A DNA stretch of 64,000 nucleotides. Source: an uncultured Chloroflexia bacterium. GTDB lineage: Bacteria; Chloroflexota; Limnocylindria; QHBO01. The position numbers and the translations under genes were made by a program. Below are positions 29,213 to 54,327 of this stretch, one piece after another. Location of the stretch: NCBI GenBank assembly GCA_963810925.1, contig CAWEPF010000008.1, positions 57,994 through 121,993 on the forward strand, written 5' to 3'. Within the stretch, counting starts at the first letter, position 1, and every line of letters starts with the position of its first letter. Below the pieces are notes generated by a model. It had not been told where the DNA came from. It did no database searches and saw nothing but the letters and a program-made list of their open reading frames with translations.

Positions 29213-29992
29213 CTAGGGAAACAGGTCCCGCTCGCGGGCCATGACCAGGGGTCGGGCGCCCAGGTCCTCTCCCCCCGGCGCCACGAACGGAAAGCCCCGG
29301 ATCACGACCACCGGACGTCCGGTGGCCTTCCCGGCCGCCAGGTCAGCGGCACTCGCCAGCTCGTCGGCCACGGCGACCACTGTCGCGTGCAGCTCCCGCC
29401 CGTCCGCGTCCGCGGTCCCGCGCAGGTCGGCCAGGACGTCGATCCCCGCGCTACCCAGCGCCACGTCGGTGATCCCGTCGCGCCACGGCCGTCCGAACGA
29501 GTCGGACACGATGACCGCCGGCCGCGCTCCCGTCAGCTCGCCCAGTCGAGCACGAATGGCCCGGGCCGACCCATCGGGATCCTTGGGCAGGAGCGTGGCC
29601 CGCTCCCCGTCCCCCGGGCCGGTGTTCGAGAGGTCCACCCCGGCGTTGGCGCACACGAACCCGTGCCGGGTCCGACTGATGATCAGGCCACCGTCCGCCA
29701 TGCGAAGCACCTCGGCGCTCTCCCGCAGCACGAGCTCCACCTGGCGCGGGTCCTTCCCCCACTGCGCGCCCCACTGGCGGGCTGTCTCGCCCGGCTCCAC
29801 GGCGGCCAGGTCCACCACCCGGCCCTCCGCCTTGCTGACGACCTTCTGCGTCACGACCACCACGTCCGCATCGGTCAGACCGATGGCGGCGGCCTCCGCC
29901 GCCGCCGCGATCATCGCCCCCAGGTCGTCCCCGGGCTGCACCTCGCCCATCCCCTCCAGCGCGACGAGCTGGATGCCGCTGCCCCCGTTCAC
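29213..29992 (-). CDS. cofE: Coenzyme F420-0:L-glutamate ligase
   Basis: PGDDLGAMI..VVVVTQKVVSKAEGR..SRTRHGFVCANAGVD..VSDSFGRPWR is diagnostic for CofE/FbiB-N. GTG 29992 gives a GTGA overlap with the cofC stop. The track ORF extends to ATG 30016. Confidence 0.85.
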   Translation of the reverse strand: MNGGSGIQLVALEGMGEVQPGDDLGAMIAAAAEAAAIGLTDADVVVVTQKVVSKAEGRVVDLAAVEPGETARQWGAQWGKDPRQVELVLRESAEVLRMADGGLIISRTRHGFVCANAGVDLSNTGPGDGERATLLPKDPDGSARAIRARLGELTGARPAVIVSDSFGRPWRDGITDVALGSAGIDVLADLRGTADADGRELHATVVAVADELASAADLAAGKATGRPVVVIRGFPFVAPGGEDLGARPLVMARERDLFP

Positions 29993-30586
29993 GCCGCGTG
30001 GCCCCGTGCCAGCCACGCGGCCAGGTCAGCCGGCGTGTCGAGGTCGAACGCCAGGCCCGCGCGGCGCACGACGGTGACCGCGGCGCCCGCCCGCTCCCCC
30101 GCCCCCCGGTGGGCCGCGAAGCTGTCGGGGCCGAACGCAAAGTTGATCGCATCCGGTGGGGACAGGGCCAACCCGTTCGTCCCACGACCGGCCGCGTCGG
30201 GAGCAATCGCGATGATCGGCGCGCCGCGTGCGGCGCTCAGGAGCGCCGTGACGTCCGAGGCAGCCAGGTCCGGAAGGTCGCCATGGAGCACGGCAACCAG
30301 CGTGACGTCGGCTTCGATCGCCTCGTCACGGGCCTGCCGAAGGCCGCTGTTCAAGCCCATGCCGTGCTGGACGGAGAGGGCGGCACCCGTTTCCGCGACG
30401 ACGGCTCGACAGCGCGGGGTCGGGCGAGATGACGACCACCTCGTGGCCCGTGGACACGGCGGTGGCCAGGACGTGGCGCAGGAGCCGCTCGGCCAGGGCC
30501 GCGCGCTCGTCCGGCTCCAGGACGGCGGCCAGGCGCGTCTTCGCATGCTCGAGCCCGCGGTGCGGGACGATGATCCGGGTCGTCAC
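29989..30586 (-). pseudogene. cofC: 2-phospho-L-lactate / phosphoenolpyruvate guanylyltransferase (CofC/FbiD), frame disruption at ~30400-30412
   Basis: The N-terminus is in ORF 30326..30586 (IIVPHRGLEHAKTRL). The remainder is in ORF 29989..30546 (GMGLNSGL..HGDLPDL..GTNGL). The two are collinear after removing one base. Confidence 0.8.
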
Positions 30587-30595
30587 CCCCGCAGC

Positions 30596-31526
30596 CTAGC
30601 CCGAGGCGGCGTCGAGCAGGGCGCGGGCCAGCGCCGCGCGATCGTCATCGGTCTGCATCACGGTCGGCAGCACGACCGCCCGGAAGCCTTCGGCGGTGAC
30701 GGCATCGGTCAGTTCGGCATCGGACTCGTCGAGCACCCACTCCTGGACCAGTCCGGCGTACAGGCGGGCGACCCCGACCGCGCTCACCTCGTGACCGAGC
30801 GAGCTCATCATCCGATCGGTAGGCCCCTTGAGCGCCTTCCCAGCCACGATGGGGCTGACCCCCACTCCGTCGTCCGGGCGCGGCGGCCAGCGCCTCGCGC
30901 ATCCCCGGCATGGCCAGGATGGGCTCGATGCTGACCAGGGGGTTGGATGGACCGATGACCACGAGGTCGGCCCGCGAGACGGCGTCCAGCACCTCGTCGG
31001 TGGGCGGGGCGGATGCGGCGCCCTCGAAGCTGATGCCCCGGACCTCGTCCCGCTGGCCTCGCTCCACGAAGTAGCGCTGGAACTCGAGGTCTCCGTCGTC
31101 GGTCAGGATCCGGGTCCGGAGCCGTCCATCGGTCGCGGGCAGGATCCGACTGGGCACCCCCAGGGCCGCGGCCATGTCGGCCGTGACCCGGGTCAGGCTG
31201 GCGCCCCGGCGCAGCTGCGCAGTGCGGCGGACGAGCGTGCCCAGGTCCGCGTCACCGAGCCAGAACCACGTTTCCTCGCCGTACCGCTCGAGCATGGTCA
31301 GGGCGCGATCGGTGTCCCCGGCCACGCCCCACCCGCGGTCGCGGTCGACCAGGCCGGCGAGGGTGTACAGGACGCTGTCCAGGTCCGGGCTGACGTGAAG
31401 ACCGAACAGCTCCAGGTCGTCGCCAACGTTGACGATCACGTCCAGCGAGCCGCCCGGCACGACCTGCTGGAATCCGTGCGCCAGCTTGGCGCCCCCCGTG
31501 CCGCCCGACAGGAGCGCGACGCGCAT
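30596..31526 (-). pseudogene. cofD: 2-phospho-L-lactate transferase (CofD/FbiA), frame disruption at ~30866-30880
   Basis: MRVALLSGGTGGAKL..IGPSNPLVSIEPIL is in ORF 30645..31625, starting at ATG 31526. The C-terminus VGVSPIVAGKALKGP.. is in ORF 30596..30865. Confidence 0.85.
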
Positions 31527-31680
31527 GGCCGGAGAGTACCGCGCCCTTGGGTGGGCGTCGCCCCGGAGACGCGTGGAGCCCGCAGTCTGGCCGCAGTCTG
31601 GCCAGAGTGGAGCCGCAGGAACCACCTCCTAGGGTCGCCTTCGTGCGGATTCGCACGGATCCCCGACAAGGAGACAGACC

Positions 31681-33198: not shown

Positions 33199-33405
33199 CT
33201 AGCCGACGCGCCTATCTCGCCGCAGCAAGAAGAGGTAGACGCCAGCACCGACGACAGCGGCAAACACCCAGGACAGGAAGTTCGCGGAGCCGAAGACCCA
33301 CTGCGCCATGAGCGTGATCGCGAACCACGCGATAACGGCCGAACCGAGTGCGATCCCAAGGCGGCGAACGACCGTGATCATGTCGCCACCGGTGCTGATG
33401 GTCAC
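33199..33405 (-). CDS. Small two-TM membrane protein (hypothetical)
   Basis: 68 aa with two hydrophobic helices. The GTG start overlaps the stop of the upstream PPOX gene (GTGA). Confidence 0.45.
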   Translation of the reverse strand: MTISTGGDMITVVRRLGIALGSAVIAWFAITLMAQWVFGSANFLSWVFAAVVGAGVYLFLLRRDRRVG

Positions 33406-33818
33406 GGGTGCCAGATGACCCGCTCGATCTGGACGCGGATGTTGATCCGCTCACCCACCGCGAACGATCCCTCCCCTTCGCCATACCGATGCGCCATGGC
33501 CCAGATCCCTGCCATCCCCGGATCGGGCGAGAGCTCGGCGGTGCCTTCGATGGTCAGGTAGTTGGTCTCGTCCTCGAAGCACAGTGACACTCTCGGGTCA
33601 CGCTGGAGGTGGCGGTGCTTGAGCCGCCCGGCCAGGGTGTTCAGCAGGACGACGTCGTGATCGGGATCAAGGTCGAACCACACCACCGACTGGCTGGGCA
33701 TGCCGTGCGCCCCCACGGTGGCCATGACCGCCCAGCGCACCTTGGCCATGAGCCACTCGCGGTGCTCGGGCTTCAGGAAGGCTTCGGTGTCGAGGCTGGT
33801 CGTGGCAGGAGGCGTCAT
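33402..33818 (-). CDS. PPOX-class (pyridoxamine 5'-phosphate oxidase-like) F420-dependent oxidoreductase
   Basis: AVMATVGAHGMPSQSVVWFDLD..RDPRVSLCFEDE..YLTIEGTAEL is typical of PPOX-class F420 enzymes. Start chosen at MTPPATT; the track ORF starts at GTG 33851. Confidence 0.7.
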   Translation of the reverse strand: MTPPATTSLDTEAFLKPEHREWLMAKVRWAVMATVGAHGMPSQSVVWFDLDPDHDVVLLNTLAGRLKHRHLQRDPRVSLCFEDETNYLTIEGTAELSPDPGMAGIWAMAHRYGEGEGSFAVGERINIRVQIERVIWHP

Positions 33819-33889
33819 GGGAGTCGCATGGTAAACCGAAGGCGGTCCCACGCCGTGAAGCCCTGGCGCGCGCCCCCTGGCAGGGAGGC

Positions 33890-34083: not shown

Positions 34084-34734
34084 TCACTCCTCCACCGGTG
34101 GAAGCGCCGCCAGGATGGCTTCGAACGCCGCTGGATCGGTGGTGGACACGAAGTACAGGGTGTCCTCGACGGCGTACAGCGCGATGGGCGTCGGGAAGTC
34201 CTCGTTCGGCTCGGCCACCTCGACCGACTTCCCGCCGATCGTGCCCGGCGTCCAGACCAGCGGGGCCCCACAGGACTCGGCCGGAGATGCCCCACTTGCC
34301 GGGCGGCAACCCTCGGCGCTGGCCTTGAACTGATCGGTCAGATCCGAGGCCGTTGAGCCGGCCACCTGGAAGGCGAAAATGCTCGCGGTCTGGTTGCCCG
34401 ACGCATTGGCACCGATGGCCACCGCCACCGCGACCTGGTCGATGTCGGCGCCGAGTCCGTTGATGAAGGCCACGAACTGGTCGTCGATCTCGGCGTCCAC
34501 GAAGTCGGGGCCGCTCATCGAGAAGCTTTGGAACACGATCCCGCCGGCTTCGTCGGGAAGCGTCGCCTCCAGGTCGGGTGCGCCCACGAAGGACGGGATG
34601 GCGCCGGAGGCAGCCGCGTCCGGCGTCGGCGATACCGATGCCGATGACTGGCAGGCCACGGCCATGACCATGGCGAGCAGCAGCACGCCCGCGCCTGCGG
34701 CGTGGGATCGGGTTCGCATCGGTCTGGTGCCCAT
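34084..34734 (-). CDS. Lipoprotein of unknown function
   Basis: The signal peptide and lipobox are GAGVLLLAMVMAVAC. Start at ATG 34734, with GAGG about 10 nt upstream. The track ORF extends to 34809, into the upstream gene. Confidence 0.6.
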   Translation of the reverse strand: MGTRPMRTRSHAAGAGVLLLAMVMAVACQSSASVSPTPDAAASGAIPSFVGAPDLEATLPDEAGGIVFQSFSMSGPDFVDAEIDDQFVAFINGLGADIDQVAVAVAIGANASGNQTASIFAFQVAGSTASDLTDQFKASAEGCRPASGASPAESCGAPLVWTPGTIGGKSVEVAEPNEDFPTPIALYAVEDTLYFVSTTDPAAFEAILAALPPVEE

Positions 34735-34745
34735 CTCGGTCTGCC

Positions 34746-36131
34746 TCAGCGGAGGTACTCGCTCCGGGCCCGCTTCAGGAACCGTCCGTCGCCCTTGGCG
34801 CCCAGCCACTGGTCGCCATCGACGATGACCTTGCCCCGCGAGAGGACGACGTCCGCCCCGCCCTGGACCTCGCGGCCCTCGTAGCAGGAGTAGTCCACGG
34901 CCATGTGATGGGTCGAGGAGCTGATCGTGTGACGGCGATTCGGGTCGTAGACCACGAGGTCCGCATCGGCCCCAACCGCGACCGCGCCCTTATGGGGCAG
35001 GCCGAACAACCGGGCCGGAGCGGTCGACACCAGCTCGACCCATCGGTTGGCGGTCAGGTGGCCGCCCACCACGCCGCCGTCATGCATGAGGTCCACCCGG
35101 TTCTCGACCCCGGGCAGGCCGTTGGGGACCTTGCGGAAGTCGCCCACGCCCAGGTCCTTCTGGCCGTGGAAGTCGAACGGGCAGTGGTCGGTGCTGACCA
35201 CCTGGAGATCGTCGTGGACGAGGCCCTTCCACAGCTCCGGCGCGTGGTCGGCCGGGCGCAGCGGCGGGGAGCACACGAACTTGGCGCCCTCGAATCCGTT
35301 GCCCATGTCCTCCAGGGTCAGGAACAGGTACTGCGGGCACGTCTCGGCGTACGCGGGCAGTCCCTCGTCCCGGGCCCGGCGGACCTCTTCCAGGGCCTCG
35401 CGCGCGGACAGGTGGACGATGTACACCGGCGCCCCGGCCGCCTGGGCGAGGCGAATGACCCGGTTGGACGCCTCGCCTTCGAGGACCGGCGACCGCGACG
35501 TGCCGTGGTAGTACGGATCGGTGTGGCCGGCCTCGACGGTCTGGCCCGCCACGACGTCAATCGCCAGTCCATTCTCCGCGTGCATCATGATCAGGCCGCC
35601 GTTCTTCACGGTCTGCTGCAGGGCCCGGAAGATCGCGCCGTCATCGGAGAAGAAGACGCCTGGGTAGGCGGTGAACAGCTTGAAGGTGGTCACGCCCTCG
35701 TCGACCAGGGTGTCCATCTCGGCCAGGACGTCGTCGCGGACGTCGCTGATGATCATGTGGAAGCCGTAGTCGATCGTCGCGTTGCCATCGGCCTTGGCAT
35801 GCCAGGCATCCAGGCCCTCGCGGAGGCTCTTGCCGCGCGACTGGACCGCGAAGTCGATGATCGTGGTCGTCCCGCCGAACGCCGCCGCCCGGGTGCCCGT
35901 CTCGAACGTGTCCTTGGCGAACGTGCCGCCGAACGGCAGCTCCATGTGGGTGTGGACGTCGATCGCGCCCGGGATCACCCACTTGCCGGCGGCATCAATG
36001 GTCCGGTCGGCCGTCGTGGACGAGGCCAGATCGGTACCGATGAGCGCAATCTGCTCGCCATCGACCAGGACGTCGCCGGTCGTCGTGGCATCGGCATTGA
36101 CGATGGTGCCGTTGGTGATGAGCGTCTTCAT
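34746..36131 (-). CDS. Dihydropyrimidinase (D-hydantoinase)
   Basis: 461 aa. Motifs seen: PGAIDVHTHMELPFGGT, FKLF (carbamylated Lys region), MMHAENG, YIVHLS, VSTDHCPF. Confidence 0.9.
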   Translation of the reverse strand: MKTLITNGTIVNADATTTGDVLVDGEQIALIGTDLASSTTADRTIDAAGKWVIPGAIDVHTHMELPFGGTFAKDTFETGTRAAAFGGTTTIIDFAVQSRGKSLREGLDAWHAKADGNATIDYGFHMIISDVRDDVLAEMDTLVDEGVTTFKLFTAYPGVFFSDDGAIFRALQQTVKNGGLIMMHAENGLAIDVVAGQTVEAGHTDPYYHGTSRSPVLEGEASNRVIRLAQAAGAPVYIVHLSAREALEEVRRARDEGLPAYAETCPQYLFLTLEDMGNGFEGAKFVCSPPLRPADHAPELWKGLVHDDLQVVSTDHCPFDFHGQKDLGVGDFRKVPNGLPGVENRVDLMHDGGVVGGHLTANRWVELVSTAPARLFGLPHKGAVAVGADADLVVYDPNRRHTISSSTHHMAVDYSCYEGREVQGGADVVLSRGKVIVDGDQWLGAKGDGRFLKRARSEYLR

Positions 36132-41739: not shown

Positions 41740-42243
41740 TCAATGCTCGGGGTGATCGCCGTGGTCGTGGTGCTCGTGGTCCTCGTGGTCATGCTCCTGC
41801 TCGTCATGGTCGTGATGGTCGTGCTCATGGTGCTCGTGCATCCACGGCGTGAAGGTCAGGCCCAGGAGCAGGCCCTCGGGGCTCAGCAGGCGGGCGGTGG
41901 TCTGGCCCCACGGCTCGATCCCCGCCTGCTTGAGCAGCCGATGGCCGGAGGCCTCCATCTCGGCGGCCGCGGCGACCACGGCCTCGGGGTTCTCGAGATC
42001 CAGCTCCACCCAGGTCGTGGGAGTGGGCAGGTCGGCGGGCCACTCCCGTGTCCCGAAGGTCGACTCGGCGGCGTCGGCCAGGGGCCAGATGGCGAAGGCG
42101 TTCACGCCGTCGAGGTCATCGGTCCCCCAGTACTCGGGTGCGATCTCGGCGATGGGCAGACCCAGGTGGCCGCCCCAGAACGCGCGACTGGTGGCGGGAT
42201 CGGCCGTGATCGGTCCGAATCCAGCGACGAGGACGATGTTCAT
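41740..42243 (-). CDS. VOC/glyoxalase-fold protein with His/Asp/Glu-rich C-terminal tail
   Basis: 167 aa starting at MNIVLVAGFG, with an ATGA overlap with the upstream VOC gene. The C-terminus is HEHHEHDHHDHDEQEHDHEDHEHHDHGDHPEH. The track ORF extension to 42603 is out of context. Confidence 0.7.
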   Translation of the reverse strand: MNIVLVAGFGPITADPATSRAFWGGHLGLPIAEIAPEYWGTDDLDGVNAFAIWPLADAAESTFGTREWPADLPTPTTWVELDLENPEAVVAAAAEMEASGHRLLKQAGIEPWGQTTARLLSPEGLLLGLTFTPWMHEHHEHDHHDHDEQEHDHEDHEHHDHGDHPEH

Positions 42244-42635
42244 TCGTTGGCTCCCGTGAGGTGGCTTCCCTGGACGATCGAGTAGATCCTGCCGTCCGGG
42301 CCGCGAATGTTGAACCATCCGTATCCGGGTCGGCTGATCAACCACGTGATCTCCCCGACGAGGTCCGCGCCGCTGGCGGCCAACTCTTCGCGCGCTTCGA
42401 CCACGTCGTCCACGACGAAGCCAATCGAGCTCCCCATTTCCGGGGCGGGCCACTCCTCGCTCTGCGCCGGCCCGAACACCTCGACGAAGTCGCGATCGGC
42501 GTCGGGCAGGTTGAACATGACGAAGTCGTCTTCGCGGTACTCCGTGGACAGGCCAAGAACGGAAGAGAAGAACTCGACGGTCTCGGGAAACCGATCGGTC
42601 CACAGTCCGAACCAGCCGATCCGTCGGACCTTCAT
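42240..42635 (-). CDS. VOC family (glyoxalase/bleomycin-resistance/dioxygenase fold) protein
   Basis: 131 aa. The pattern is IGWFGLWTDRF..TVEFF..VLGL.. then GFVVDDV..A.EEL, typical of VOC proteins. Confidence 0.7.
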   Translation of the reverse strand: MKVRRIGWFGLWTDRFPETVEFFSSVLGLSTEYREDDFVMFNLPDADRDFVEVFGPAQSEEWPAPEMGSSIGFVVDDVVEAREELAASGADLVGEITWLISRPGYGWFNIRGPDGRIYSIVQGSHLTGANE

Positions 42636-42638
42636 CGG

Positions 42639-43655
42639 TCAGGCGCCTGGTTTTGGCGTGAGCACCGCTGCCAGGGCCGGGATGACCTCGCGCCCGTATC
42701 GGTCCAGCTGGTCCTCTTCGTCGCCGTTCATGAGGTAGAAGTTGAACTGATCCACGCCGGCATCGGCCAGCTCGTGGAGCTTGGCCACATGCTCCGCGGC
42801 GTCACCCAGGATGCAGAACCGGTCCGTCACCTCGTCGCCCACGAAGGCGGCGTTGCTGGAACCCACCTCGGCGTGATGGTGGTAGTCGTAGCCCTCGCGG
42901 TCGGTCACGTAGCCGGTCAGTGCCTCGGGCAGCTGCTCGCGCGGGTACTTGTTCACGAGGTCCACCACGTGGTTGCTGACCAGGGCCGGGAACCATCGCG
43001 TCCGCTCGTGACCCTCCGTGCGAGGACCCACGTGCGCGGGCGCGGCGGCCTGGACCTTGATCTCGCCCGGTGAGCGGCCGGCGGCCGCCTCCGCCTCGCG
43101 GAGCTGGGCGACGAACCAGCGGATGAGGTCAGGGTCCGCCAACTGGAGGATGAGCCCATCTGCCACGCGGCCGGTCATGGCCAGGGCCATCGGTCCGTAG
43201 CCGGCCACCCATACCGGGAGGCGCCACTTGCCGGTCCAGGTCAGCTGCAGCTCGGTGCCTTCGTAGGTGACGGCGCGGCCCTCGACCAGGTCACGGATGA
43301 CCGCGATCGCCTCCTCGAGGGTCTTCATCGTGGTCGGCGGCTTGCCGAGCACGCGCCGCGCGCTGTCGCCGCGACCGATGCCCAGGTCCATCCGCCCGCT
43401 GCTGATCTCGTTGAGCTCGGCCAGGGTGGACGCCGTGACCGACGGCTCGCGGGTCGCCGGATTGGTGACGCACGTTCCCAGCCGCATGTGCTCGGTGGCC
43501 CCGGCCATCAGGGTCAGCGCCGGATACGGATCGCGCCACAGGACGTGCGAGTCGAACACCCACCCGTAGGCAAAGCCGCTGGCCTCGGCCCGGCGCGTCA
43601 AATCAAGGGTGCGGCCGGTCTCGTTCTCGAGCTTGAGCGTGAACCCAAAGTCCAT
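42639..43655 (-). CDS. LLM-class F420-dependent oxidoreductase
   Basis: 338 aa. FAYGWVFDSHVLWRDPYPALTLMAGATEHMRLGTCVTNPATREP..GRMDLGIGRGDS is a luciferase-like TIM-barrel signature. Confidence 0.8.
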   Translation of the reverse strand: MDFGFTLKLENETGRTLDLTRRAEASGFAYGWVFDSHVLWRDPYPALTLMAGATEHMRLGTCVTNPATREPSVTASTLAELNEISSGRMDLGIGRGDSARRVLGKPPTTMKTLEEAIAVIRDLVEGRAVTYEGTELQLTWTGKWRLPVWVAGYGPMALAMTGRVADGLILQLADPDLIRWFVAQLREAEAAAGRSPGEIKVQAAAPAHVGPRTEGHERTRWFPALVSNHVVDLVNKYPREQLPEALTGYVTDREGYDYHHHAEVGSSNAAFVGDEVTDRFCILGDAAEHVAKLHELADAGVDQFNFYLMNGDEEDQLDRYGREVIPALAAVLTPKPGA

Positions 43656-43680
43656 CGGTCAGGCCCTCAGCACGCGGCCG

Positions 43681-44541
43681 TCAGGGCCGGACGAGGTCGT
43701 CGTACGCGTCGGGTCGGCGGTCGCGGAAGAACTGCCAGGTCTGGCGAACCTCGGTGATCATGTCGAGGTCCATGTCGCGGACCAGGAGCTCCTCGTCGTG
43801 GGCGTCGCCCACGTCACCGATGAACTGGCCGCGCGGGTCCACGAAGTAGGACTGCCCGTAGAAGTCGTCCTCGCCCAGGGGCTCGATCCCGACCCGGTTG
43901 ATGGTCCCTACGAAGTAGCCGTTGGCGAGGGCATGGCTGACCTGCTCCACCCGCCACAGGTACTCACTCAGGCCGCGCGACGTGGCCGACGGGATGAACA
44001 CGATCTCCGCGCCATTGAGGCCCAGGGCGCGCGCGCCCTCGGGGAAGTGGCGGTCGTAGCAGATGTACACCCCCACCTTGCCCACGGCCGTGTCGAAGAC
44101 CGGATACCCCAGGTTGCCGGGGCGGAAGTAGAACTTCTCCCAGAAGCCCTTGACGTGGGGGATGTGGGTCTTCCGGTACTTGCCCAGGTACGACCCGTCG
44201 GCGTCGATGACCGCGGCGGTGTTGTAGTAGATCCCGGCGGTCTCGTCGTCCTCCTCGTACATCGGTACGACGAGGACCATGCCGGTCTCCTTGGCCAGGG
44301 CCTGCATCCGCTTGGTGGTTGGCCCGTCCGGGATCTTCTCGGTGTAGGAGTAGTACTGAGGATCCTGGACCTGGCAGAAGTAGGGACCGTAGAACAGCTC
44401 CTGGAAGCACATGACCTGGGCGCCCTGCTTGGCGGCCTCGCGCGCATAGCGCTCGTGCTTCTCGATCATGGAGTCCTTGTCGCCGGTCCACTCGGCCTGC
44501 AGCAGCGCTGCCCGCACGATGCGCGCCATCGGTCTGTTCAA
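43681..44541 (-). CDS. Beta-ureidopropionase / N-carbamoyl-amino-acid amidohydrolase (nitrilase superfamily)
   Basis: 286 aa. It has VMCFQELFYGPYFC (Glu), YRKTHIP (Lys) and VYICYDRHFPE (Cys). An alternative ATG lies at 44526. Confidence 0.85.
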   Translation of the reverse strand: MNRPMARIVRAALLQAEWTGDKDSMIEKHERYAREAAKQGAQVMCFQELFYGPYFCQVQDPQYYSYTEKIPDGPTTKRMQALAKETGMVLVVPMYEEDDETAGIYYNTAAVIDADGSYLGKYRKTHIPHVKGFWEKFYFRPGNLGYPVFDTAVGKVGVYICYDRHFPEGARALGLNGAEIVFIPSATSRGLSEYLWRVEQVSHALANGYFVGTINRVGIEPLGEDDFYGQSYFVDPRGQFIGDVGDAHDEELLVRDMDLDMITEVRQTWQFFRDRRPDAYDDLVRP

Positions 44542-44574: not shown

Positions 44575-45300
44575 CTACACCGTCGGCTGAGACCCACCCA
44601 TCGGTTCGAAGGCTTCCTCGTGCCGGGCGAGGGCGATCAGGATCCAGCCGTACGCGGCGATCAGAACCAGCGTGACGATCGCACCAAAGCCCACGATCGC
44701 GCCAAAGGCGCCGCGGATGTGCTCGCCCATGTGCCGAGGGGCATCCGCCATGAGCGGTGCCCAGGCCCCAATCCAGACCAGCGCCGAAAGCAGGCCCATG
44801 ACCAGGACGACCAGGGCCATCCCGCTCACGACGATGCCCAGGAGACGACCCGATGGCCGGCGTTGGAGGATCCAGACGCCGGACAGGATCTGGCTGCCGG
44901 CAATGACCACTCCCGCGGCCGCGATGATCAGGAGGGCGAGGAACGCGAAGCCGAGCATGTTCACGTCGCCAGCCGGGGCGCCGATGACGGTGGGCATCCC
45001 GCCAGATGGGCCGCCGTTGAACGAATTGCCACCATTCATGAAGCCGCCGCCGTTCGGGAATCCGCCGTCGGTCTGAAACGTCACGACCCCCTGGCGCCCG
45101 GCGCGCGCCGCCGCGGCGACCACGACCCAGAACATGACGGCCAGCGTGTTCAGGGCGGAGATTCCGCCGAAGACGAGGAGGATCACGGCGGCGGCGTTCA
45201 CTCGGCCGCGGGCCTTGTCGGCGGAGGATTTCGCCGGAGCCGGCGGCGCGGCCGCAGCTGAATCGGCGGAGTCGGCGGCGGGCACAGCGTCGTCAGTCAT
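44575..45300 (-). CDS. Integral membrane protein with Gly/Asn-rich loop (hypothetical)
   Basis: 241 aa with about 5 TM helices and a GGFPNGGGFMNGGNSFNGGPSGG loop. Confidence 0.55.
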   Translation of the reverse strand: MTDDAVPAADSADSAAAAPPAPAKSSADKARGRVNAAAVILLVFGGISALNTLAVMFWVVVAAAARAGRQGVVTFQTDGGFPNGGGFMNGGNSFNGGPSGGMPTVIGAPAGDVNMLGFAFLALLIIAAAGVVIAGSQILSGVWILQRRPSGRLLGIVVSGMALVVLVMGLLSALVWIGAWAPLMADAPRHMGEHIRGAFGAIVGFGAIVTLVLIAAYGWILIALARHEEAFEPMGGSQPTV

Positions 45301-45380: not shown

Positions 45381-45974
45381 GTGTCCTGGAGTCGCCCCGC
45401 CAAGATCGCGTTCATCGGTTCGCACTCGGTCCGCAAGACGAACGCGGTCCACGCGTTTGCCTCCACGGTGGGCCGCGCGGGCCGGAGCGTCGAGGTCGGC
45501 CGAGAGGTCATCCGATTCAACCCGCTGGGCCTGAACGAGGGGGCCACGCCCGAGGCCCAGCTGTGGGTGCTCATGGCCCAGATCCAGCAGGAGCTCGAGC
45601 TGCGGACGCGGGCCGACATCCTGGTCACGGACCGCAGCGTGGTGGACAACTTCGCCTACTTCCTGCGCGTGACCGGCGGTGAAGACCCGTTCAGCGTGGA
45701 GCCGCTGGTTCGCCGCTGGGCAGGGACGTACGACCTGTTCGTGCGCCTGCTCCCCGACGTGGCGCTCCTCCCCGACGGCGTGCGATCCACGAATGACGCC
45801 TTCCGCGACGAGATCGAGGCGATCCTTGACCGCATCCTGCCGACCTACGTGGCGGCGGACCGATTCGTGCGGCTGCCCGCGAGCCAGGTGACCGAGGAAT
45901 ACGACTGGATGGCCCTGGCCGAGCGCCTGGCGCGCCTGGTGGGGCAGCCGCTCCGCGACTCGGTCCAGGCCTAG
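45381..45974 (+). CDS. P-loop NTPase-like protein (AAA_28/NadR-kinase-like) with atypical Walker A
   Basis: 197 aa with a GTG start. FIGSHSVRKTN sits where GxxxxGK[ST] is expected, and ILVTDRS looks like a Walker B. Confidence 0.55.
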   Translation: MSWSRPAKIAFIGSHSVRKTNAVHAFASTVGRAGRSVEVGREVIRFNPLGLNEGATPEAQLWVLMAQIQQELELRTRADILVTDRSVVDNFAYFLRVTGGEDPFSVEPLVRRWAGTYDLFVRLLPDVALLPDGVRSTNDAFRDEIEAILDRILPTYVAADRFVRLPASQVTEEYDWMALAERLARLVGQPLRDSVQA

Positions 45975-49142: not shown

Positions 49143-50474
49143 ATGACCGTCACCCCCACCCGCCACCTGACGTCCGAAGAGGTCGTCGCGCTCAACAAGC
49201 AGTACACGCTCTTCAGCTGGTCCGCGCAGAACAAGATCAACCCCATCGCCATGGATCACGGCGAGGGCATCTACTTCTGGGACGCGGACGGCAAGCGCTA
49301 CATCGACTTCAATAGCCAGCTGATGTCCGTGAACATCGGTCATGGCGACCGTCGCGTGGCCGACGCGATCGCGGAGCAGGCTCACCAGCTGGCCTTCGCC
49401 GCTCCCCAGTTTGCGACCGAGGTCCGCGGGCGGCTGGGTGAGCTGCTCGCCACGCTGACCCCGGGCAACCTGGACACCTTCTTCTTCACGCTGGGCGGGG
49501 CGGAAGCCAACGAGAACGCGCTGCGCATGGCGCGGATCACGACCGGGCGGCAGAAGGTCATCGCCCATCACCGCTCGTACCACGGCGCCACCGCCGGCTC
49601 GATCTCGGTGACCGGCGACCCCCGTCGCTGGGCCAACGAGCCGGGCGTGCCGGGCGTCATCAGGGTCCTCGACCCGTGGCGCTGGGGCCAGACCGAGCCG
49701 GAGCCGGTGGATCGCCAGCTGGAGTACCTCAACGAGGTCATCCAGTACGAGGGGCCGCACACCATCGCCGCCTTCATCCTCGAGACGGTGACCGGCACCA
49801 ACGGGATCCTGATCCCGCCCGACGGGTACCTCCAGGGCGTGCGCGCGCTCTGTGACAAGTACGGGATCCTGATGATCTGCGACGAAGTGATGGCCGGCTT
49901 CGGTCGCACGGGCCGATGGTTCGCGGTGGACCACTGGGACGTCGTGCCCGACCTGCTGACCATGGCAAAGGGACTCACCAGTTCGTACCTGCCGCTCGGC
50001 GCGGTGGCCATGAAGCCGGAGATCGCCCATTACTTCGACGACACGGTCTACTACGGCGGGCTGACCTACTCCGCCCATCCGGTGAGCTGCGCGGCGGCCA
50101 TCGCGGCGGTGGGCGTCCTGCGCGACGACGACTTGGTGGGCAACGCCGCCCGCCTGGGTCCGGTCATGCACGACCTGCTCCAGGACCTGCAGGCGCGTCA
50201 TCCGAGCGTGGGCACGACCCGCAACATCGGTTTGTTCGGGGTGATCGAGCTCGTCCGCAACCGCGAGACGATGGAGCCCATGACCGCCTTCAATGCCAGC
50301 TCCCCAGAGATGGCGGCCCTCGACAAGCGGCTGCGCGAGGACGGGCTGTACACGATGCAGCACTGGCACCAGGTCTTCACCAACCCACCGCTGTGCATCA
50401 CCGAGAACCAGCTGCGCGAGGCGTTCGGGATCGTCGATCAGGCGCTCGAGGTGACCGATGCCGCGGTCGCCTGA
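49143..50474 (+). CDS. Class III (omega) PLP-dependent aminotransferase
   Basis: 443 aa from ATG 49143, with GAGG 8 nt upstream. Motifs seen: LMICDEVMAGFGRTG and LTMAKGLTSSYLPLG (Lys). The track ORF starts further upstream at 48993. Confidence 0.85.
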   Translation: MTVTPTRHLTSEEVVALNKQYTLFSWSAQNKINPIAMDHGEGIYFWDADGKRYIDFNSQLMSVNIGHGDRRVADAIAEQAHQLAFAAPQFATEVRGRLGELLATLTPGNLDTFFFTLGGAEANENALRMARITTGRQKVIAHHRSYHGATAGSISVTGDPRRWANEPGVPGVIRVLDPWRWGQTEPEPVDRQLEYLNEVIQYEGPHTIAAFILETVTGTNGILIPPDGYLQGVRALCDKYGILMICDEVMAGFGRTGRWFAVDHWDVVPDLLTMAKGLTSSYLPLGAVAMKPEIAHYFDDTVYYGGLTYSAHPVSCAAAIAAVGVLRDDDLVGNAARLGPVMHDLLQDLQARHPSVGTTRNIGLFGVIELVRNRETMEPMTAFNASSPEMAALDKRLREDGLYTMQHWHQVFTNPPLCITENQLREAFGIVDQALEVTDAAVA

Positions 50475-50512: not shown

Positions 50513-51397
50513 ATGACCGCCGGCACCACGACCGGATCGGTTCGGGCCAGCCGCCGCCGGCGGCTCGTGTTCTTCGTCCTGTTCATCGTGGGTATTGCCG
50601 TCCTGTGGGAGGGCCTCAAGGTCCTCGGCGGCGACCCGTATCGGGTCGACGGGCAGGTCGTCTGGACGCCGCCCCTGGACATTGGGATGGCCAGCGACGT
50701 CAACATGCCGCACATCTGGGTCATCTTTCAGCGCCTCCCCGAGCCGCTGACGTCGGGTGCGGACCAGACCCTGTTCGGATACCTCCTCGACCAGTCGCTG
50801 TACACCCTGCGCGCGGCGTTCATCGGGTTCACGATCGGGGGGCTATTAGGGATCGGCCTGGCGGTGGCCTTCGTCCACTCGGGCCTCATCGAACGCGCGT
50901 TCGTCCCGTATGTCGTCGCCAGCCAGACGATCCCGATCATCGCGCTCGCCCCGCTGATCGTGTACCTGGTGGGACAGAACGTCACGAGCGTGGTCATCGT
51001 GGCCACCTACCTCAGCTTCTTCCCGGTGACGATCGCCATGCTCCGCGGCCTCCGCTCCCCGGACCCGCGGGCGCTGGAGCTGATGCGCTCGTACGCTGCA
51101 TCCAAGCGCGCCGTCCTGTGGAAGGTGCGCTTTCCCGCTTCGTTGCCGTATCTCATGACCGCCCTGAAGATCACGGCCACGGCCAGCATCGTGGGCGCCA
51201 TCGTGGGCGAGGGGTCCGGCAGCCTCCAGGCGGGCCTGGGACGGGCCTTGGTGTTCTTCTCGCAGCAGTACACGGTCGCTCCCGAGAAGCTGTGGGGCGC
51301 CATCCTGTTCACCTCCGGGGTCGGAATCATCTGCTACGCGCTCGTCCGGCTGGTTGAGCTGCGCGTGATCCGGGTCCAGCCCGGCGTGGAAACCTGA
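50513..51397 (+). CDS. ABC transporter permease (NitT/TauT family)
   Basis: 294 aa with 6 TM helices and an EAA-like loop (LELMRSYAASKRAVLWKVRFPASLPY). Confidence 0.85.
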   Translation: MTAGTTTGSVRASRRRRLVFFVLFIVGIAVLWEGLKVLGGDPYRVDGQVVWTPPLDIGMASDVNMPHIWVIFQRLPEPLTSGADQTLFGYLLDQSLYTLRAAFIGFTIGGLLGIGLAVAFVHSGLIERAFVPYVVASQTIPIIALAPLIVYLVGQNVTSVVIVATYLSFFPVTIAMLRGLRSPDPRALELMRSYAASKRAVLWKVRFPASLPYLMTALKITATASIVGAIVGEGSGSLQAGLGRALVFFSQQYTVAPEKLWGAILFTSGVGIICYALVRLVELRVIRVQPGVET

Positions 51398-52248
51398 TGA
51401 CCGCGACCGACACCGGAAAACCCGTCGTTCGCCTGACCGGGGTCAGCAAGTCCTTCGGCGAAGCCGGATCGAGCTCGTCGCCGCCGACGGTCGCCCTGAG
51501 CGACATCAGCCTCGACATCCACCAGGGCGAGTTCATCTCGCTGATCGGTCCATCCGGCTGCGGAAAGTCCACCCTGCTTCGTTTGATCGGCGACCTCACC
51601 GAGCCCACGAGCGGCGGGGTTCAGGTCAACGGCAAGGCGGCGGCCCAGGCCCGGCTGGACCGCGACTACGGGATGGTCTTCCAGTCCCCCACCCTGTTCG
51701 ACTGGCGGACGGTGGAGGACAACGTCCGACTGCCACTCGAGCTGTTCGGCTACGACAGAACTGCCCAGACCGAAAAGATCCGCGAGATGCTGGAGCTGGT
51801 GGCGCTGACCGATTTCGCCGGCCACCACCCGTACCAGCTGTCGGGCGGGATGCAGCAGCGGGTGGCGATCGCCCGCGCCCTGGCCTTCTCGCCCACCCTG
51901 CTGCTCATGGACGAGCCCTTCGGGGCGCTGGACGAGATGACCCGCGAACGGATGAACTCCGAGGTATTGAGCATCTGGGAGCGGACCGGGATCACCGTCA
52001 TCTTCGTGACCCACTCAATCCCGGAGGCCGTCTTCCTCTCGACCCGGGTGGCGGTCATGAGCGCCCGTCCCGGTCGCATCACGCGTCTCGTGAACGTGGG
52101 CCTGCCCCGGCCGCGCGGGCTGGACACCCGCGAGAGCCCGTCCTACTTCGCGTACATCACCGAGGTGCGCGAGGCGCTCCGCGCTGGAGAGGGCGAGGCT
52201 GATCTCGCGTCACCCGAGCGAACGGCAGCGGAAGGGCTGATCGGCTGA
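51397..52248 (+). CDS. ABC transporter ATP-binding protein (NitT/TauT family)
   Basis: Walker A is GPSGCGKST, the signature is LSGGMQQR and Walker B is LLLMDEPF. The start overlaps the upstream stop (TGATG). Confidence 0.9.
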   Translation: MTATDTGKPVVRLTGVSKSFGEAGSSSSPPTVALSDISLDIHQGEFISLIGPSGCGKSTLLRLIGDLTEPTSGGVQVNGKAAAQARLDRDYGMVFQSPTLFDWRTVEDNVRLPLELFGYDRTAQTEKIREMLELVALTDFAGHHPYQLSGGMQQRVAIARALAFSPTLLLMDEPFGALDEMTRERMNSEVLSIWERTGITVIFVTHSIPEAVFLSTRVAVMSARPGRITRLVNVGLPRPRGLDTRESPSYFAYITEVREALRAGEGEADLASPERTAAEGLIG

Positions 52249-53033
52249 TGCAGACCCTGCGCCAATACGTCCCGGCCGCGCTCATCCTCATCGGTGTGCT
52301 GGTGGCCTGGGAGGTCCTGGTCCAGGCCTCCGGCGTCGAGGGATTCATCCTTCCCGCCCCGTCTGCCATCTGGGCAGCCCTCGTGGCGAACTGGACTGAT
52401 GGCTACGCCATTCTGGAGGCCGCCAAGGTGACCCTGTTCGAGGCCCTGGGCGGCTTGCTGCTGGGCACCTTCCTGGGCGTCTCGACCGCGTTCATCGTCT
52501 CGCGCTTCCCGACCTCGCGAGACACCGTGCTGCCGCTGGCGATCGCGATCAACGCCATCCCGATCATTGCCTTCGCCCCGGTGGCCAACAACTGGTTCGG
52601 TATCACGAGTCCGCTCTCGAAGATGGCGATCGCGGCCACCCTGGTGTACTTCCCGATGATGATCAGCACGCTGCGCGGCCTGACCCAGGTCGAGCCATCA
52701 GCCCTGGAGCTGATGCGCTCCTACGCGGCCGGACCGACGGCGGTCACCCGCCAGGTCCGCGTGCCAAATGCGCTCCCGTTCTTCCTGACCGGGCTCAAGG
52801 TGGCCACCACCCTGAGCCTGATCGGTGCGGTGGTGGGCGAGTACTTCGGTGGGCTGAGCGCGACGCTGGGCCGCGTGGTCGTGGCGGCGGCCAGCGGGCT
52901 GAAGTTCGACGTGACCTGGGCGGCCATCCTGGTGGTGTCCCTCACGGGAATCGTGATGTACCTGATGGTCGTGGGCCTGGAACGGCTGCTCATCCCGTGG
53001 CACCCCTCCATCCGCGGCGACAAGGTGGCCTGA
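52248..53033 (+). CDS. ABC transporter permease (NitT/TauT family)
   Basis: 261 aa and paralogous to 50513..51397 (LELMRSYAAGPTAVTRQVRVPNALPF). It has a TGATG overlap with the ATPase gene. Confidence 0.85.
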   Translation: MQTLRQYVPAALILIGVLVAWEVLVQASGVEGFILPAPSAIWAALVANWTDGYAILEAAKVTLFEALGGLLLGTFLGVSTAFIVSRFPTSRDTVLPLAIAINAIPIIAFAPVANNWFGITSPLSKMAIAATLVYFPMMISTLRGLTQVEPSALELMRSYAAGPTAVTRQVRVPNALPFFLTGLKVATTLSLIGAVVGEYFGGLSATLGRVVVAAASGLKFDVTWAAILVVSLTGIVMYLMVVGLERLLIPWHPSIRGDKVA

Positions 53034-53148
53034 CAGGCGACGGCCCGACGGGCGACCGGGGGCGGAAGACGGCTTGCCGGCCAACCTGCCTGAGTAGAAT
53101 CACCATTCACGGATGGCCCTGCCCGGGCCGTCGCACTGAGGAGTGGAG

Positions 53149-54327
53149 ATGAGGGTCACACGAGCTTTTGGTGTGCTGGTCGTCGCGGCCAGCCTGTTCC
53201 TCGCCGCGTGTCAGTCAAGCGCGAGCGAGAGTCCCTCGGCGTCGGAGGCGGCCTCGGGGAGCGCGGCTCCCAGCCAGGAGTCCTACGAGCCGGCCACCGT
53301 CAGCCTCCAGCTGCAGTGGACCGACCAGGCCCAGTTCGCCGGGTACTACGCGGCGGTCGAGCAGGGCTACTACGACGACGTTGCCCTGACCGTGAACATC
53401 CTGCCGGGCGGCGGCACCATCGTCCCGCAGCAGGTTGGATCGGCGCCCGACGGCCCCGAATTCACCATTGCCTGGATGCCCAAGGTGCTCGAGGCACGCG
53501 AGGCAGGATCAGACCTGGTCCATCTGGCCCAGATCTTCCAGCGGTCCGCCACCCTGTCCGTGGCCTGGGCCGATAGCGGCATCACCGAGGTGTCCGACTG
53601 GGCCGGCAAGAAGATCGGCGCCTGGCCGTTCGGCAACGAGCTCGAGGTCCTGGCCTCGGCCAAGATCCTGGCCAACCTCGTCGAGCCCACCGACTTCACC
53701 CGGGTCGAGCAGGACTTCGACATGAACGAGCTCATTGCCGCCCAGGACGGATGCACGTCGTCCGACTCGGACTGCGTGAACGTTGCCGAGGCGATGGTCT
53801 ACAACGAGTGGGCGCAGCTGCTCGAGGCAACTGATCCCACGACCGGCGACCTGTTCCAGCCGGACCAGTTCTTCGTGTTCAACTACAACGACCTGGGCAC
53901 CGCCATGCTGCAGGACGGGCTGTGGGCCCGCCAGTCGTGGCTGGACGAGGGGAACAACACCGAAGTCGCCCAGCGCTTCCTCGAGGCCTCGTTCAAGGGC
54001 TGGATGTACTGCCGCGATCATCCCGATGACTGCGTCCAGTACTCCATCGACCGGGGCAGCATCTGGGGCAAGGGCCACCTCACCTGGATGATGAACGAGA
54101 TCAACAAGCTCGTCTGGCCGGCGCCGGACGGGATTGGCGCGCTGGACCAGGACGTCCTGGCCCAGACCATCGACACGGCCACGGCGGCGGGCATCCTCGC
54201 CACGGAGCCAGACGATGCGGCGTTCAACTCGGACATCATCGCGGCGGCGTGGGCCGACCTGACCGGCGACACGACCGGCGAGAGCTGGGAAGCGCCCGTG
54301 GTGGAGATCAGCCCCGGCGGCGAGTGA
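53149..54327 (+). CDS. ABC transporter substrate-binding lipoprotein (NMT1/THI5-like, NitT/TauT family)
   Basis: The lipobox is LFLAAC. The core LQLQWTDQAQFAGYYAAVEQGYYDD is typical of NMT1-like binding proteins. ATG 53149 has GAGGAG upstream; the track starts at GTG 53143. Confidence 0.8.
   Translation: MRVTRAFGVLVVAASLFLAACQSSASESPSASEAASGSAAPSQESYEPATVSLQLQWTDQAQFAGYYAAVEQGYYDDVALTVNILPGGGTIVPQQVGSAPDGPEFTIAWMPKVLEAREAGSDLVHLAQIFQRSATLSVAWADSGITEVSDWAGKKIGAWPFGNELEVLASAKILANLVEPTDFTRVEQDFDMNELIAAQDGCTSSDSDCVNVAEAMVYNEWAQLLEATDPTTGDLFQPDQFFVFNYNDLGTAMLQDGLWARQSWLDEGNNTEVAQRFLEASFKGWMYCRDHPDDCVQYSIDRGSIWGKGHLTWMMNEINKLVWPAPDGIGALDQDVLAQTIDTATAAGILATEPDDAAFNSDIIAAAWADLTGDTTGESWEAPVVEISPGGE

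Follow-up and report, generated by a model that had tools for sequence, protein, structure and literature searches.

A putative F420-dependent counterpart of dihydropyrimidine dehydrogenase in pyrimidine-catabolic gene clusters of Limnocylindria and other bacteria

The studied DNA of an uncultured member of Limnocylindria, a 64,000-nucleotide stretch hereafter called the window, encodes an LLM-class F420-dependent oxidoreductase of the TIGR03842 family (42639..43655, minus strand, 338 amino acids), which we regard as a candidate F420H2:uracil/thymine reductase. Judging from its sequence and gene context, this protein is likely to reduce uracil and thymine at the expense of F420H2, being an analog and not a homolog of dihydropyrimidine dehydrogenase (DPD). 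It probably represents a new, unrelated enzyme for the first step of pyrimidine breakdown, encoded, in at least three bacterial phyla, in gene clusters devoid of the usual enzyme of that step. The earlier note on this DNA had proposed such an F420H2-dependent pyrimidine reductase, and on genomic grounds this reading is the best supported one. A full-text literature search revealed no description of an F420-dependent DPD.

Gene cluster of the window and search for dihydropyrimidine dehydrogenase

ORF and domain scans confirmed every gene which the earlier note had placed in the window, together with its coordinates. Upstream of the LLM gene lies a gene encoding a CN-hydrolase of the beta-ureidopropionase/N-carbamoylputrescine amidase (CPA) clade (43681..44541, minus strand, 286 amino acids; PF00795, 2.4e-66). 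As had been claimed, these genes lie exactly 25 nt apart, with the LLM gene downstream on the same strand; the gap contains a GAGGG ribosome-binding-like motif, and no terminator- or promoter-like sites were seen between the hydrolase and LLM genes. A search for promoters and terminators in the surroundings of the operon gave nothing informative. The nearest solved structure to the CN-hydrolase is that of N-carbamoylputrescine amidase 5h8i (1.5e-62), followed by beta-ureidopropionases 2vhh and 6ftq (~1e-50), whereas D-carbamoylases are much more distant (~1e-24 against ~1e-50 to 1e-62). The aguB model matched the protein with 269 bits, under its cutoff of 410, and no equivalog model was passed; we predict it to be an N-carbamoyl-beta-alanine (and beta-aminoisobutyrate) amidohydrolase. 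The transcription unit may start with a hypothetical ORF located 34 nt upstream of the hydrolase gene (44575..45300, minus strand, GC3 0.85), which had no Pfam or NCBIfam match and is lineage-specific, with a counterpart in a single related locus.

The dihydropyrimidinase of the D-hydantoinase family (34746..36131, minus strand), expected in a reductive pyrimidine (Pyd) cluster, was recognized by the TIGR02033 equivalog model with 553.7 bits at a cutoff of 393. It is separated from the LLM gene by 6.5 kb with lineage-specific genes, among them an insertion encoding a Glyoxalase/VOC-like protein (42240..42635, minus strand; PF00903, 2.4e-05), which begins 4 nt past the LLM stop codon and has a homolog only in one related locus (L018). 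Directly 3' of the dihydropyrimidinase gene lies a conserved hypothetical ORF (34084..34809, minus strand) with no match in Pfam, the homologs of which come after dihydropyrimidinase in 20 related loci; its membership in the cluster is uncertain. On the plus strand, a class-III (omega) aminotransferase (49143..50474; PF00202, 3.7e-90; NF004718, 553 bits at a cutoff of 472), predicted to act on beta-alanine and beta-aminoisobutyrate, is followed by an ABC importer (50513..54327), for which uptake of pyrimidine nucleobases is predicted. As revealed by Pfam, the importer consists of two BPD_transp_1 permeases (50513-51397 and 52248-53033), an ABC_tran ATPase (51397-52248) and an NMT1/THI5-like binding protein (53143-54327). 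No methylmalonate-semialdehyde dehydrogenase (MMSDH) was found among the window ORFs scanned, and the window cluster has no aldehyde dehydrogenase. Of the two last enzymes of the route, the aminotransferase is encoded in the window and the semialdehyde dehydrogenase in the clusters of its relatives.

The presence of CofE (29213..30016, minus strand; PF01996, 7.8e-72) and CofD (30645..31625, minus strand; PF01933, 1.3e-38) in the window indicates that the organism makes F420. These genes are context lying outside the operon: proximity of PntAB and of cofD/cofE was considered as a conserved feature of the cluster and rejected, as it is not kept within 10 kb of the LLM gene in other Limnocylindria.

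The earlier note had also stated that no classical DPD is visible in the locus. Indeed, Pfam scans of ~60 window ORFs revealed no DHO_dh, Fer4_20 or PreT-type protein, and tblastn of E. coli PreT and PreA against the window gave nothing at E ≤ 1e-6. PreT/PreA likewise gave nothing at E ≤ 1e-4 in 175 loci of TIGR03842 members (~2.0 Mb of flanks, within 10 kb), an absence that refers to the window and the cluster neighborhoods; a canonical DPD may be encoded elsewhere in the genomes. As a control, the PreA probe detected homologs across phyla with 42-44% identity at E ~1e-97.

Conservation of the cluster in Limnocylindria and other lineages

Conserved synteny between the LLM gene and pyrimidine-catabolic genes, a check set beforehand, was observed both within Limnocylindria and across Chloroflexota, Actinomycetota and Alphaproteobacteria. 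In the survey of 80 species-level Limnocylindria (Chloroflexota) genomes, where loci with enough flank around the LLM gene were considered assessable, the CN-hydrolase gene preceded LLM on its strand in 76 of the 80 loci, and in 59/60 of those where the upstream flank spans 4 kb or more. The dihydropyrimidinase gene was found downstream on the same strand in all 44 loci whose flank reaches at least 9 kb, directly adjoining LLM in several of them, and the aminotransferase gene was divergently located upstream in 36 of 44 assessable loci. The LLM gene is linked most tightly to the hydrolase and dihydropyrimidinase genes and less to the aminotransferase gene, and encodes the sole oxidoreductase conserved in the cluster. 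Two other window ORFs were considered as DPD substitutes and rejected: the PNPOx/FDOR-like ORF 33402-33851 accompanies the cluster in just 3 Limnocylindria loci, the FDOR-A encoded at 7515-8015 in none.

Outside Limnocylindria, LLM and its partner genes are again neighbors, though in rearranged order, in Anaerolineaceae, Acidimicrobiia, Thermoleophilia, Streptomyces and a soil metagenome clade, as well as on a Leisingera plasmid. LLM orthologs are encoded, for instance, by Aquihabitans sp. G128 (CP077604.1), Streptomyces rimosus and Leisingera caerulea S122. The arrangements (CNhyd, CN-hydrolase; DHPase, dihydropyrimidinase; AT3, class-III aminotransferase; Aldedh, aldehyde dehydrogenase) are MocR <> CNhyd-DHPase-MMSDH-LLM-ABC(NMT1) <AT3 in Ilumatobacteraceae, the same core without adjacent ABC genes in Aquihabitans, AT3 <> Aldedh-CNhyd-LLM-DHPase in Anaerolineaceae, DHPase-CNhyd-LLM in Thermoleophilia and CNhyd-AT3...DHPase-LLM in Streptomyces. 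In the soil clade, the LLM proteins of which are 45-50% identical to that of the window, DHPase-ABC <> M20 carbamoylase-LLM was observed in ~19/31 loci of at least 7 kb. Class-III aminotransferase genes occur in the clusters of Acidimicrobiia, Anaerolineaceae, Streptomyces and Leisingera as well. The dehydrogenase in the Ilumatobacteraceae operon was identified as MMSDH by TIGR01722 (702 bits); genes recognized as Aldedh at the Pfam level occupy the MMSDH position in Aquihabitans, Anaerolineaceae and loci of the P0121 clade, and an aldehyde dehydrogenase gene shares one operon with LLM in a marine (Tara) locus. Since a CoA-acylating MMSDH is thus encoded in the operon in some lineages, LLM is left as the only unassigned oxidoreductase and the DPD reaction as the only unassigned step.

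Other partners of LLM are swapped for non-homologous equivalents while LLM itself is retained. The NMT1-type ABC importer accompanies the cluster in Limnocylindria, Ilumatobacteraceae, Anaerolineaceae and the P0121 clade, its place being taken by an NCS1 nucleobase symporter in Leisingera and in locus L116; the CN-hydrolase is replaced in other lineages by an M20/TIGR01879 carbamoylase, which is consistent with the beta-ureidopropionase role. Being conserved across phyla, the hydrolase-LLM arrangement is far beyond chance. No dihydropyrimidinase gene lies within 10 kb of some family members (Paracoccus, P0483, P0398, P0438 and L098/L151).

In three alphaproteobacterial loci (two plasmids and one MAG), i.e., in Leisingera caerulea, Paracoccus alcaliphilus and an alphaproteobacterial MAG, a cofG-cofH-cofD-cofC-cofE-fno operon ends with the LLM gene, and these LLM proteins are 45-47% identical to that of the window. 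On the Leisingera caerulea plasmid the cof operon faces the pyrimidine genes (pntAB-AT3-M20 hydrolase-hydA-NCS1 <> cofG-cofH-cofD-cofC-cofE-npdG(Fno)-LLM). The M20 hydrolase and HydA encoded there are 58% identical to their counterparts in Azospirillum sp. B510, which sit in a preT-preA-hydrolase-hydA cluster, an apparent natural swap of the first enzyme. A fused Fno-LLM ORF (P0472) was discarded as Rosetta-stone evidence, as it comes from a 7x long-read contig with split ORFs nearby and might be a frameshift artefact; it was counted solely as an fno-LLM adjacency.

We lean slightly toward the broader joint statement that TIGR03842 proteins are F420H2-using DPDs of unrelated origin that had gone unrecognized, that they are the standard first enzyme across numerous soil and aquatic bacteria which make F420 (Limnocylindria, Anaerolineae, Acidimicrobiia, Thermoleophilia and Streptomyces), and that the alphaproteobacterial cofGHDCE-fno-LLM cassette, seen as portable, largely serves this reaction.

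Family, fold and cofactor of the LLM protein and its relation to known systems

The Pfam scan revealed PF00296 (2.3e-61) as the sole domain of the LLM protein. The TIGR03842 model (F420_CPS_4043) matched it in full length, with residues 2-328 aligned to positions 1-329 of 329, and with 429.5 bits, above the curated cutoff of 295.45. In line with PF00296, the AF2 model (pLDDT 84.5, pTM 0.86) displayed the luciferase-like (beta/alpha)8 barrel; its best 25 matches in the PDB were all F420-dependent LLMs, and its TM-score against the Mer-F420 complex 1z69 was 0.80. Its closest relatives of solved structure, namely Mer, hydroxymycolate dehydrogenase, FGD and Adf, use F420 without exception, with FMN-dependent LLMs ranking lower. 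Given these relatives, CofD, CofE and the FDOR-A encoded in the window and the homologs ending cofGHDCE-fno operons, F420 rather than FMN is predicted to be the cofactor. The F420 LLM families were reportedly defined by Selengut and Haft in 2010. Of the characterized F420 enzymes of the LLM type, Mer acts on C=N+, and FGD, Adf and hydroxymycolate dehydrogenase on alcohol/carbonyl groups; we know of no demonstrated case of C=C reduction by the luciferase-like F420 fold.

Mer, the closest solved relative (4.9e-33 with a single sequence, 1.5e-42 with a profile, 26-31% identity), shares with LLM the fold and the cofactor class. LLM scores under the cutoffs of both Mer models (NF002619, 149.3 vs 276; TIGR03555, 133.7 vs 348.7) and, unlike Mer, is encoded within pyrimidine-catabolic clusters of bacteria that are not methanogens; we infer that its substrate in these organisms is certainly not H4MPT-linked.

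PydA and PreT-PreA (EC 1.3.1.1, 1.3.1.2) hold the same position as that predicted for LLM, before dihydropyrimidinase and beta-ureidopropionase, catalyze the same predicted reaction, and cluster with orthologous downstream genes, as the comparison of Azospirillum with Leisingera demonstrates. LLM displays no homology to these enzymes and lacks their canonical architecture (a DHO_dh FMN barrel, 4Fe-4S domains and a FAD/NAD(P)H subunit). The hydride donor differs as well, being predicted to be F420H2 for LLM and being FMNH2 fed by NAD(P)H or ferredoxin in PydA/PreTA, of which a ferredoxin-dependent PydA variant exists (PMC7332683). RutA belongs to the same PF00296 superfamily as LLM and also performs the first catabolic step on uracil and thymine, but it is an FMN-dependent monooxygenase cleaving the ring with FMNH2 and O2 and acting with RutB-G; TIGR03612 (RutA) did not match LLM at E ≤ 1e-5, and the window cluster showed no genes of the RutB-G type. 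Mycobacterial FDOR-A ene-reductases transfer hydride from F420H2 to activated C=C bonds, i.e., they perform the chemistry proposed here for LLM (bioRxiv 10.1101/2022.11.05.515281; PMC5449967), yet they have an unrelated split beta-barrel fold (PF04075) and are promiscuous xenobiotic reductases with no dedicated catabolic role.

Proposed pathway and alternative roles

By analogy with the chemistry of DPD and DHODH and with F420H2-dependent ene-reductions, uracil or thymine, presumably imported via the NMT1-type ABC system, would be reduced in the LLM TIM barrel, where the 5,6-double bond would receive a hydride from bound F420H2 at C6 and a proton from an acidic active-site residue at C5, yielding 5,6-dihydrouracil or 5,6-dihydrothymine. 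Residues shared by the Limnocylindria and Acidimicrobiia LLM sequences, e.g., H37, R69, D97, H229, Y256, Y258, H261 and C281 (numbered as in the window protein), may include this proton donor. The gene product identified as dihydropyrimidinase would open the ring. The CN-hydrolase, as its family and context suggest, would release beta-alanine or beta-aminoisobutyrate with NH3 and CO2, and the class-III aminotransferase would produce malonate or methylmalonate semialdehyde, which in related lineages would be oxidized by the CoA-acylating MMSDH of the same operon. Oxidized F420 would be re-reduced with NADPH by Fno, the gene of which is co-operonic with LLM in Alphaproteobacteria.

If this assignment is true, it supplies the first reaction that was lacking from a core route of nitrogen recycling in soil and freshwater lineages which are abundant and for the most part uncultured, adds another non-homologous enzyme replacement, here for the medically well-known DPD reaction, and extends luciferase-like F420 chemistry to ene-reduction of nucleobases, as the first C=C ene-reduction by that fold. 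It would also define the first physiological role of F420 in Proteobacteria and Chloroflexota. The 2021 review of F420 stated that no F420-dependent enzyme had been studied in Alphaproteobacteria or Chloroflexota and posed the role of F420 there as a question (PMC8498797, section 23), to which a concrete answer would be given. Automated annotation, which now reports these pathways as incomplete, would be corrected, and the family labeled only as 'TIGR03842 family oxidoreductase' would obtain a named function; an F420-dependent uracil reductase could also be of use in biocatalysis, where beta-amino acids are made from dihydropyrimidines.

Among other roles, LLM might reduce another N-heterocycle feeding dihydropyrimidinase, such as 5-substituted uracils, alkylidene hydantoins, cyclic imides or a purine-derived ring ('yanthine' of the reductive uric-acid pathway), with uracil and thymine left to a DPD encoded elsewhere. 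We consider this unlikely, even though dihydropyrimidinases act broadly as D-hydantoinases/imidases (the name of TIGR02033 covers both) and some LLM family members adjoin Hydantoinase_B, amidase or isochorismatase genes. Uric-acid clusters of Chloroflexota, a phylum which produces F420, carry, in place of the missing DPD-like flavin/Fe-S reductase YgfK/UacX, a putative F420 luciferase-family 'yanthine reductase', noted as a bioinformatic remark in a 2025 paper (PMC12507026), and the logic is thus shared with the present case; those clusters, however, serve a purine substrate and encode SsnA, XdhD, HyuA and YgeW/Y/X. Equivalents of XdhD, SsnA, YgeW, YgeY and YgeX are absent from the window and the related clusters, which led us to discard the view that the cluster is a version of the reductive uric-acid pathway (PMC12507026). 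Moreover, the conserved partners of LLM correspond exactly to uracil/thymine catabolism (a beta-ureidopropionase-type amidase, an omega-aminotransferase, MMSDH, and an NCS1 symporter or NMT1 protein), the amidase being much nearer to beta-ureidopropionase/CPA than to D-carbamoylases.

More unlikely still is a function at the end of the pathway, where LLM would use F420 to reduce malonate or methylmalonate semialdehyde (a PydE-like step to 3-hydroxypropionate or 3-hydroxyisobutyrate) or would be another carbonyl/alcohol oxidoreductase, with a conventional DPD encoded elsewhere. Such a role would suit the mostly alcohol/carbonyl-directed activity of FGD, Adf and hydroxymycolate dehydrogenase, as well as the window cluster, which has the aminotransferase and no aldehyde dehydrogenase. 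Nevertheless, the semialdehyde is already used by an aldehyde dehydrogenase of the same operon in Acidimicrobiia, Anaerolineaceae and the Tara locus, LLM is tightest with the hydrolase and dihydropyrimidinase and not with the aminotransferase, and DPD was found within 10 kb in 0/175 loci.

That the adjacency is a historical accident and LLM performs a Mer-like C1 reaction or general F420 redox function is highly improbable: although Mer is its closest solved relative and a minority of family members occur in unrelated contexts, LLM falls far under the cutoffs of the Mer models, and its linkage is kept through at least six gene orders, three phyla and non-homologous partner replacement, which would be unexpected otherwise and points to selection for co-function.

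The gene cluster around the F420-type oxidoreductase

The F420-type oxidoreductase of the window (LLM; 42639-43655, minus strand) is a luciferase-like protein of 338 aa (PF00296, 2.3e-61), which reached 429.5 bits with the NCBIfam model TIGR03842 'LLM class F420-dependent oxidoreductase' (cutoff 295.45) and failed both NCBIfam models of the F420-dependent methylene-tetrahydromethanopterin reductase (Mer). Its close solved homologues are all F420 enzymes. The AlphaFold model (pLDDT 84.5, pTM 0.86) was best matched by Mer with F420 (TM 0.80), and the top 25 PDB matches were F420-dependent LLMs throughout, FMN-dependent ones ranking lower. The protein is strongly conserved (>80% identity throughout the 120 best database clusters, several carrying the names Limnocylindria or Chloroflexota), and in a search of 50%-identity cluster representatives several deep clades still passed TIGR03842.

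In the window (G+C ~69%), genes were chosen by third-position GC. The CN_hydrolase gene (43681-44541, minus strand; PF00795, 2.4e-66) lies upstream of LLM and ends exactly 25 nt from it, as the earlier note had it, with no terminator-like site seen between the two. Among solved proteins, the hydrolase is closest to N-carbamoylputrescine amidase (1.5e-62) and then to animal beta-ureidopropionases (~1e-50), D-carbamoylases being much more distant (~1e-24). Family-model matches agreed with the earlier description of a dihydropyrimidinase (34746-36131; TIGR02033, 553.7 versus a cutoff of 393), a class-III aminotransferase (AT3; 49143-50474) and a four-gene ABC importer with an NMT1-type binding protein (50513-54327). 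The claim that the window lacks a classical dihydropyrimidine dehydrogenase (DPD) held as well: Pfam scans of ~60 of its ORFs revealed no DHO_dh, Fe-S or PreT-type protein, and E. coli PreT and PreA, used as tblastn queries, matched nothing in it at E<=1e-6. LLM and the dihydropyrimidinase stand 6.5 kb apart; the genes in between, which recur in no more than a few close relatives, encode a glyoxalase-like protein, a cupin, a PadR regulator, an AhpC-like protein and a class I/II aminotransferase.

Several further genes were observed. A 241-aa ORF without Pfam match (34084-34809, minus strand) overlaps the dihydropyrimidinase stop codon, and its homologues come after the dihydropyrimidinase in 20 related loci. 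An AAA_28-family P-loop protein (45381-45974, plus strand) is encoded upstream of the hydrolase operon, though on the other strand, a position kept in 15 related Limnocylindria loci. A second CN_hydrolase (12305-13183, plus strand; PF00795, 2.2e-48) shares 29% identity with that of the cluster. Two tandem paralogous ORFs of 1187 aa each (342-3905 and 3902-7465, minus strand) overlap by 4 nt, both with a double zinc ribbon at the N-terminus, an adenylate/guanylate cyclase domain and an AAA_16 (STAND-like) ATPase.

Conservation of the neighbourhood

Relatives were sought in one genome per GTDB species, and the best 80 of at least 583 loci, nearly all bearing the label Limnocylindria or unclassified Chloroflexota (a single record reads Pleomorphomonadaceae), were searched by tblastn with the window proteins as queries. 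A CN-hydrolase precedes LLM on the same strand in 76 of the 80 loci (59 of the 60 whose upstream flank reaches 4 kb), and a dihydropyrimidinase follows it on the same strand in 59 (44 of the 44 whose downstream flank reaches 9 kb). The aminotransferase is divergently upstream in 36 of the 44 assessable Limnocylindria loci, and several genomes among the 80 loci possess a contiguous hydrolase-LLM-dihydropyrimidinase core. The conservation for which the earlier note had asked was thus found, and it also crosses phyla.

In Ilumatobacteraceae (Acidimicrobiia), where LLM is 46% identical to that of the window, the order is MocR <> CN-hydrolase-dihydropyrimidinase-aldehyde dehydrogenase-LLM-ABC(NMT1)-EamA <AT3 (<>, divergent halves), the dehydrogenase being a CoA-acylating methylmalonate-semialdehyde dehydrogenase (MMSDH; TIGR01722, 702 bits); Aquihabitans sp. 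G128 shares this core but has no ABC genes next to it. Anaerolineaceae display NMT1-ABC-AT3 <> Aldedh-CN-hydrolase-LLM-dihydropyrimidinase, Thermoleophilia dihydropyrimidinase-CN-hydrolase-LLM, and Streptomyces rimosus and Streptomyces sp. BHT-5-2 CN-hydrolase-AT3 ... dihydropyrimidinase-LLM. In a soil-metagenome clade (LLMs 45-50% identical to the window protein), ~19 of the 31 loci that span at least 7 kb have the order dihydropyrimidinase-ABC(NMT1) <> M20 'hydantoinase/carbamoylase family' amidase-LLM. On a Leisingera caerulea plasmid, pntA-pntB-omega-aminotransferase-M20 hydrolase-hydA-NCS1 nucleobase symporter diverges from cofG-cofH-cofD-cofC-cofE-npdG(Fno)-LLM, where Fno is NADPH:F420 oxidoreductase. 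The linkage is therefore kept through at least six gene orders and through non-homologous swaps of partners (CN-hydrolase for M20 carbamoylase, ABC importer for NCS1 symporter), which indicates a functional role instead of a neighbourhood simply inherited and makes pure coincidence very unlikely.

A DAO-family FAD-dependent oxidoreductase directly follows LLM in Streptomyces rimosus (locus L088, 16030-17136) and in Thermoleophilia (L173, 11079-12374), and may offer an alternative route for beta-amino-acid oxidation. TIGR03842-like proteins also occur away from any dihydropyrimidinase (loci L172, protein P0398; L176, P0438; L098; L151), one adjoining isochorismatase, Hydantoinase_B, amidase and a 446-aa LLM, another an M19 dipeptidase, which suggests functional divergence or unlinked pathway genes.

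The vacant step and the proposed reaction

A tblastn search with E. coli PreT/PreA through 175 loci that surround family members (~2.0 Mb) gave no match at E<=1e-4; the PreA probe is sensitive, retrieving homologues at 42-44% identity (E ~1e-97) in many phyla. The positive control, a plasmid of Azospirillum sp. B510, carries preT-preA-M20 hydrolase-TetR-hydA. Its hydrolase and hydA share 58% identity with their Leisingera counterparts, so the same downstream enzymes are coupled to PreTA in Azospirillum and to the cof-fno-LLM cassette in Leisingera. In the operons with MMSDH, the initial reduction is the one step of uracil/thymine catabolism that lacks a gene, and LLM the one enzyme left with no step. 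Considering these facts, we regard LLM as probably an F420H2-dependent uracil/thymine reductase; the earlier note had proposed such an enzyme, or a hydantoin-type one, in place of DPD.

It is possible, though less likely, that LLM acts on another heterocycle and that DPD is encoded elsewhere in the genome. A few family members adjoin Hydantoinase_B/amidase genes or sit in unrelated contexts, and a 2025 paper remarks on a putative F420 luciferase-family reductase that replaces YgfK/UacX in Chloroflexota uric-acid clusters (PMC12507026). That proposal would parallel ours; uricolytic genes are absent from the window cluster. A role as terminal semialdehyde reductase is weakened by the co-occurrence of MMSDH with LLM and by the tighter linkage of LLM to the first two hydrolases.

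As a uracil/thymine reductase, LLM would transfer a hydride from F420H2 within its barrel to C6 of uracil or thymine, an active-site acid would protonate C5, and Fno, which in Alphaproteobacteria is encoded directly in the operon of LLM, would recycle F420. The formal chemistry would be that of DPD and DHODH, and the reaction would resemble the F420H2 ene-reductions of FDOR-A enzymes. Canonical DPD uses NAD(P)H. Since F420 is like a low-potential nicotinamide cofactor (PMC8498797), the F420H2-driven reduction should likewise be thermodynamically feasible.

Neither an F420-dependent DPD nor a function for TIGR03842 was found in the open full-text literature, though the neighbourhood may have been noticed earlier. 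A 2021 review of F420 is silent on pyrimidine catabolism; according to it, outside Actinobacteria no enzyme dependent on F420 had so far been studied, and the role of the cofactor in Alphaproteobacteria is unclear (PMC8498797).

F420 supply

In Leisingera, Paracoccus alcaliphilus and one alphaproteobacterial MAG, a complete F420-biosynthesis operon with Fno ends in LLM, the sole F420 client visible there. The window encodes CofE (29213-30016, minus strand), CofD (30645-31625, minus strand) and FDOR-A (F420H2_quin_red; 7515-8015, plus strand), so its organism makes and uses F420. A second LLM (32237-33172, minus strand) scored 211 bits, just below the TIGR03560 cutoff of 231, and a PNPOx/FDOR-like protein lies at 33402-33851 (minus strand). 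These F420-related genes, concentrated in the window, stay near the pyrimidine cluster in its closest relatives only.

PntAB transhydrogenase (58941-62001, minus strand) lies ~4.6 kb past the ABC importer, and other Limnocylindria do not keep it within 10 kb. In Leisingera caerulea (L085/L086, plasmid NZ_CP081074.1), the aminotransferase-hydrolase-hydA operon starts directly with pntA-pntB. PntAB may thus provide the NADPH for Fno and F420H2. In another relative (L175, 7261-8898; P0472), a single 545-aa ORF joins an Fno domain (PF03807) to LLM; the contig has 7x long-read coverage and split neighbouring genes, and the ORF represents a genuine fusion or else neighbouring fno and LLM genes run together by a frameshift.
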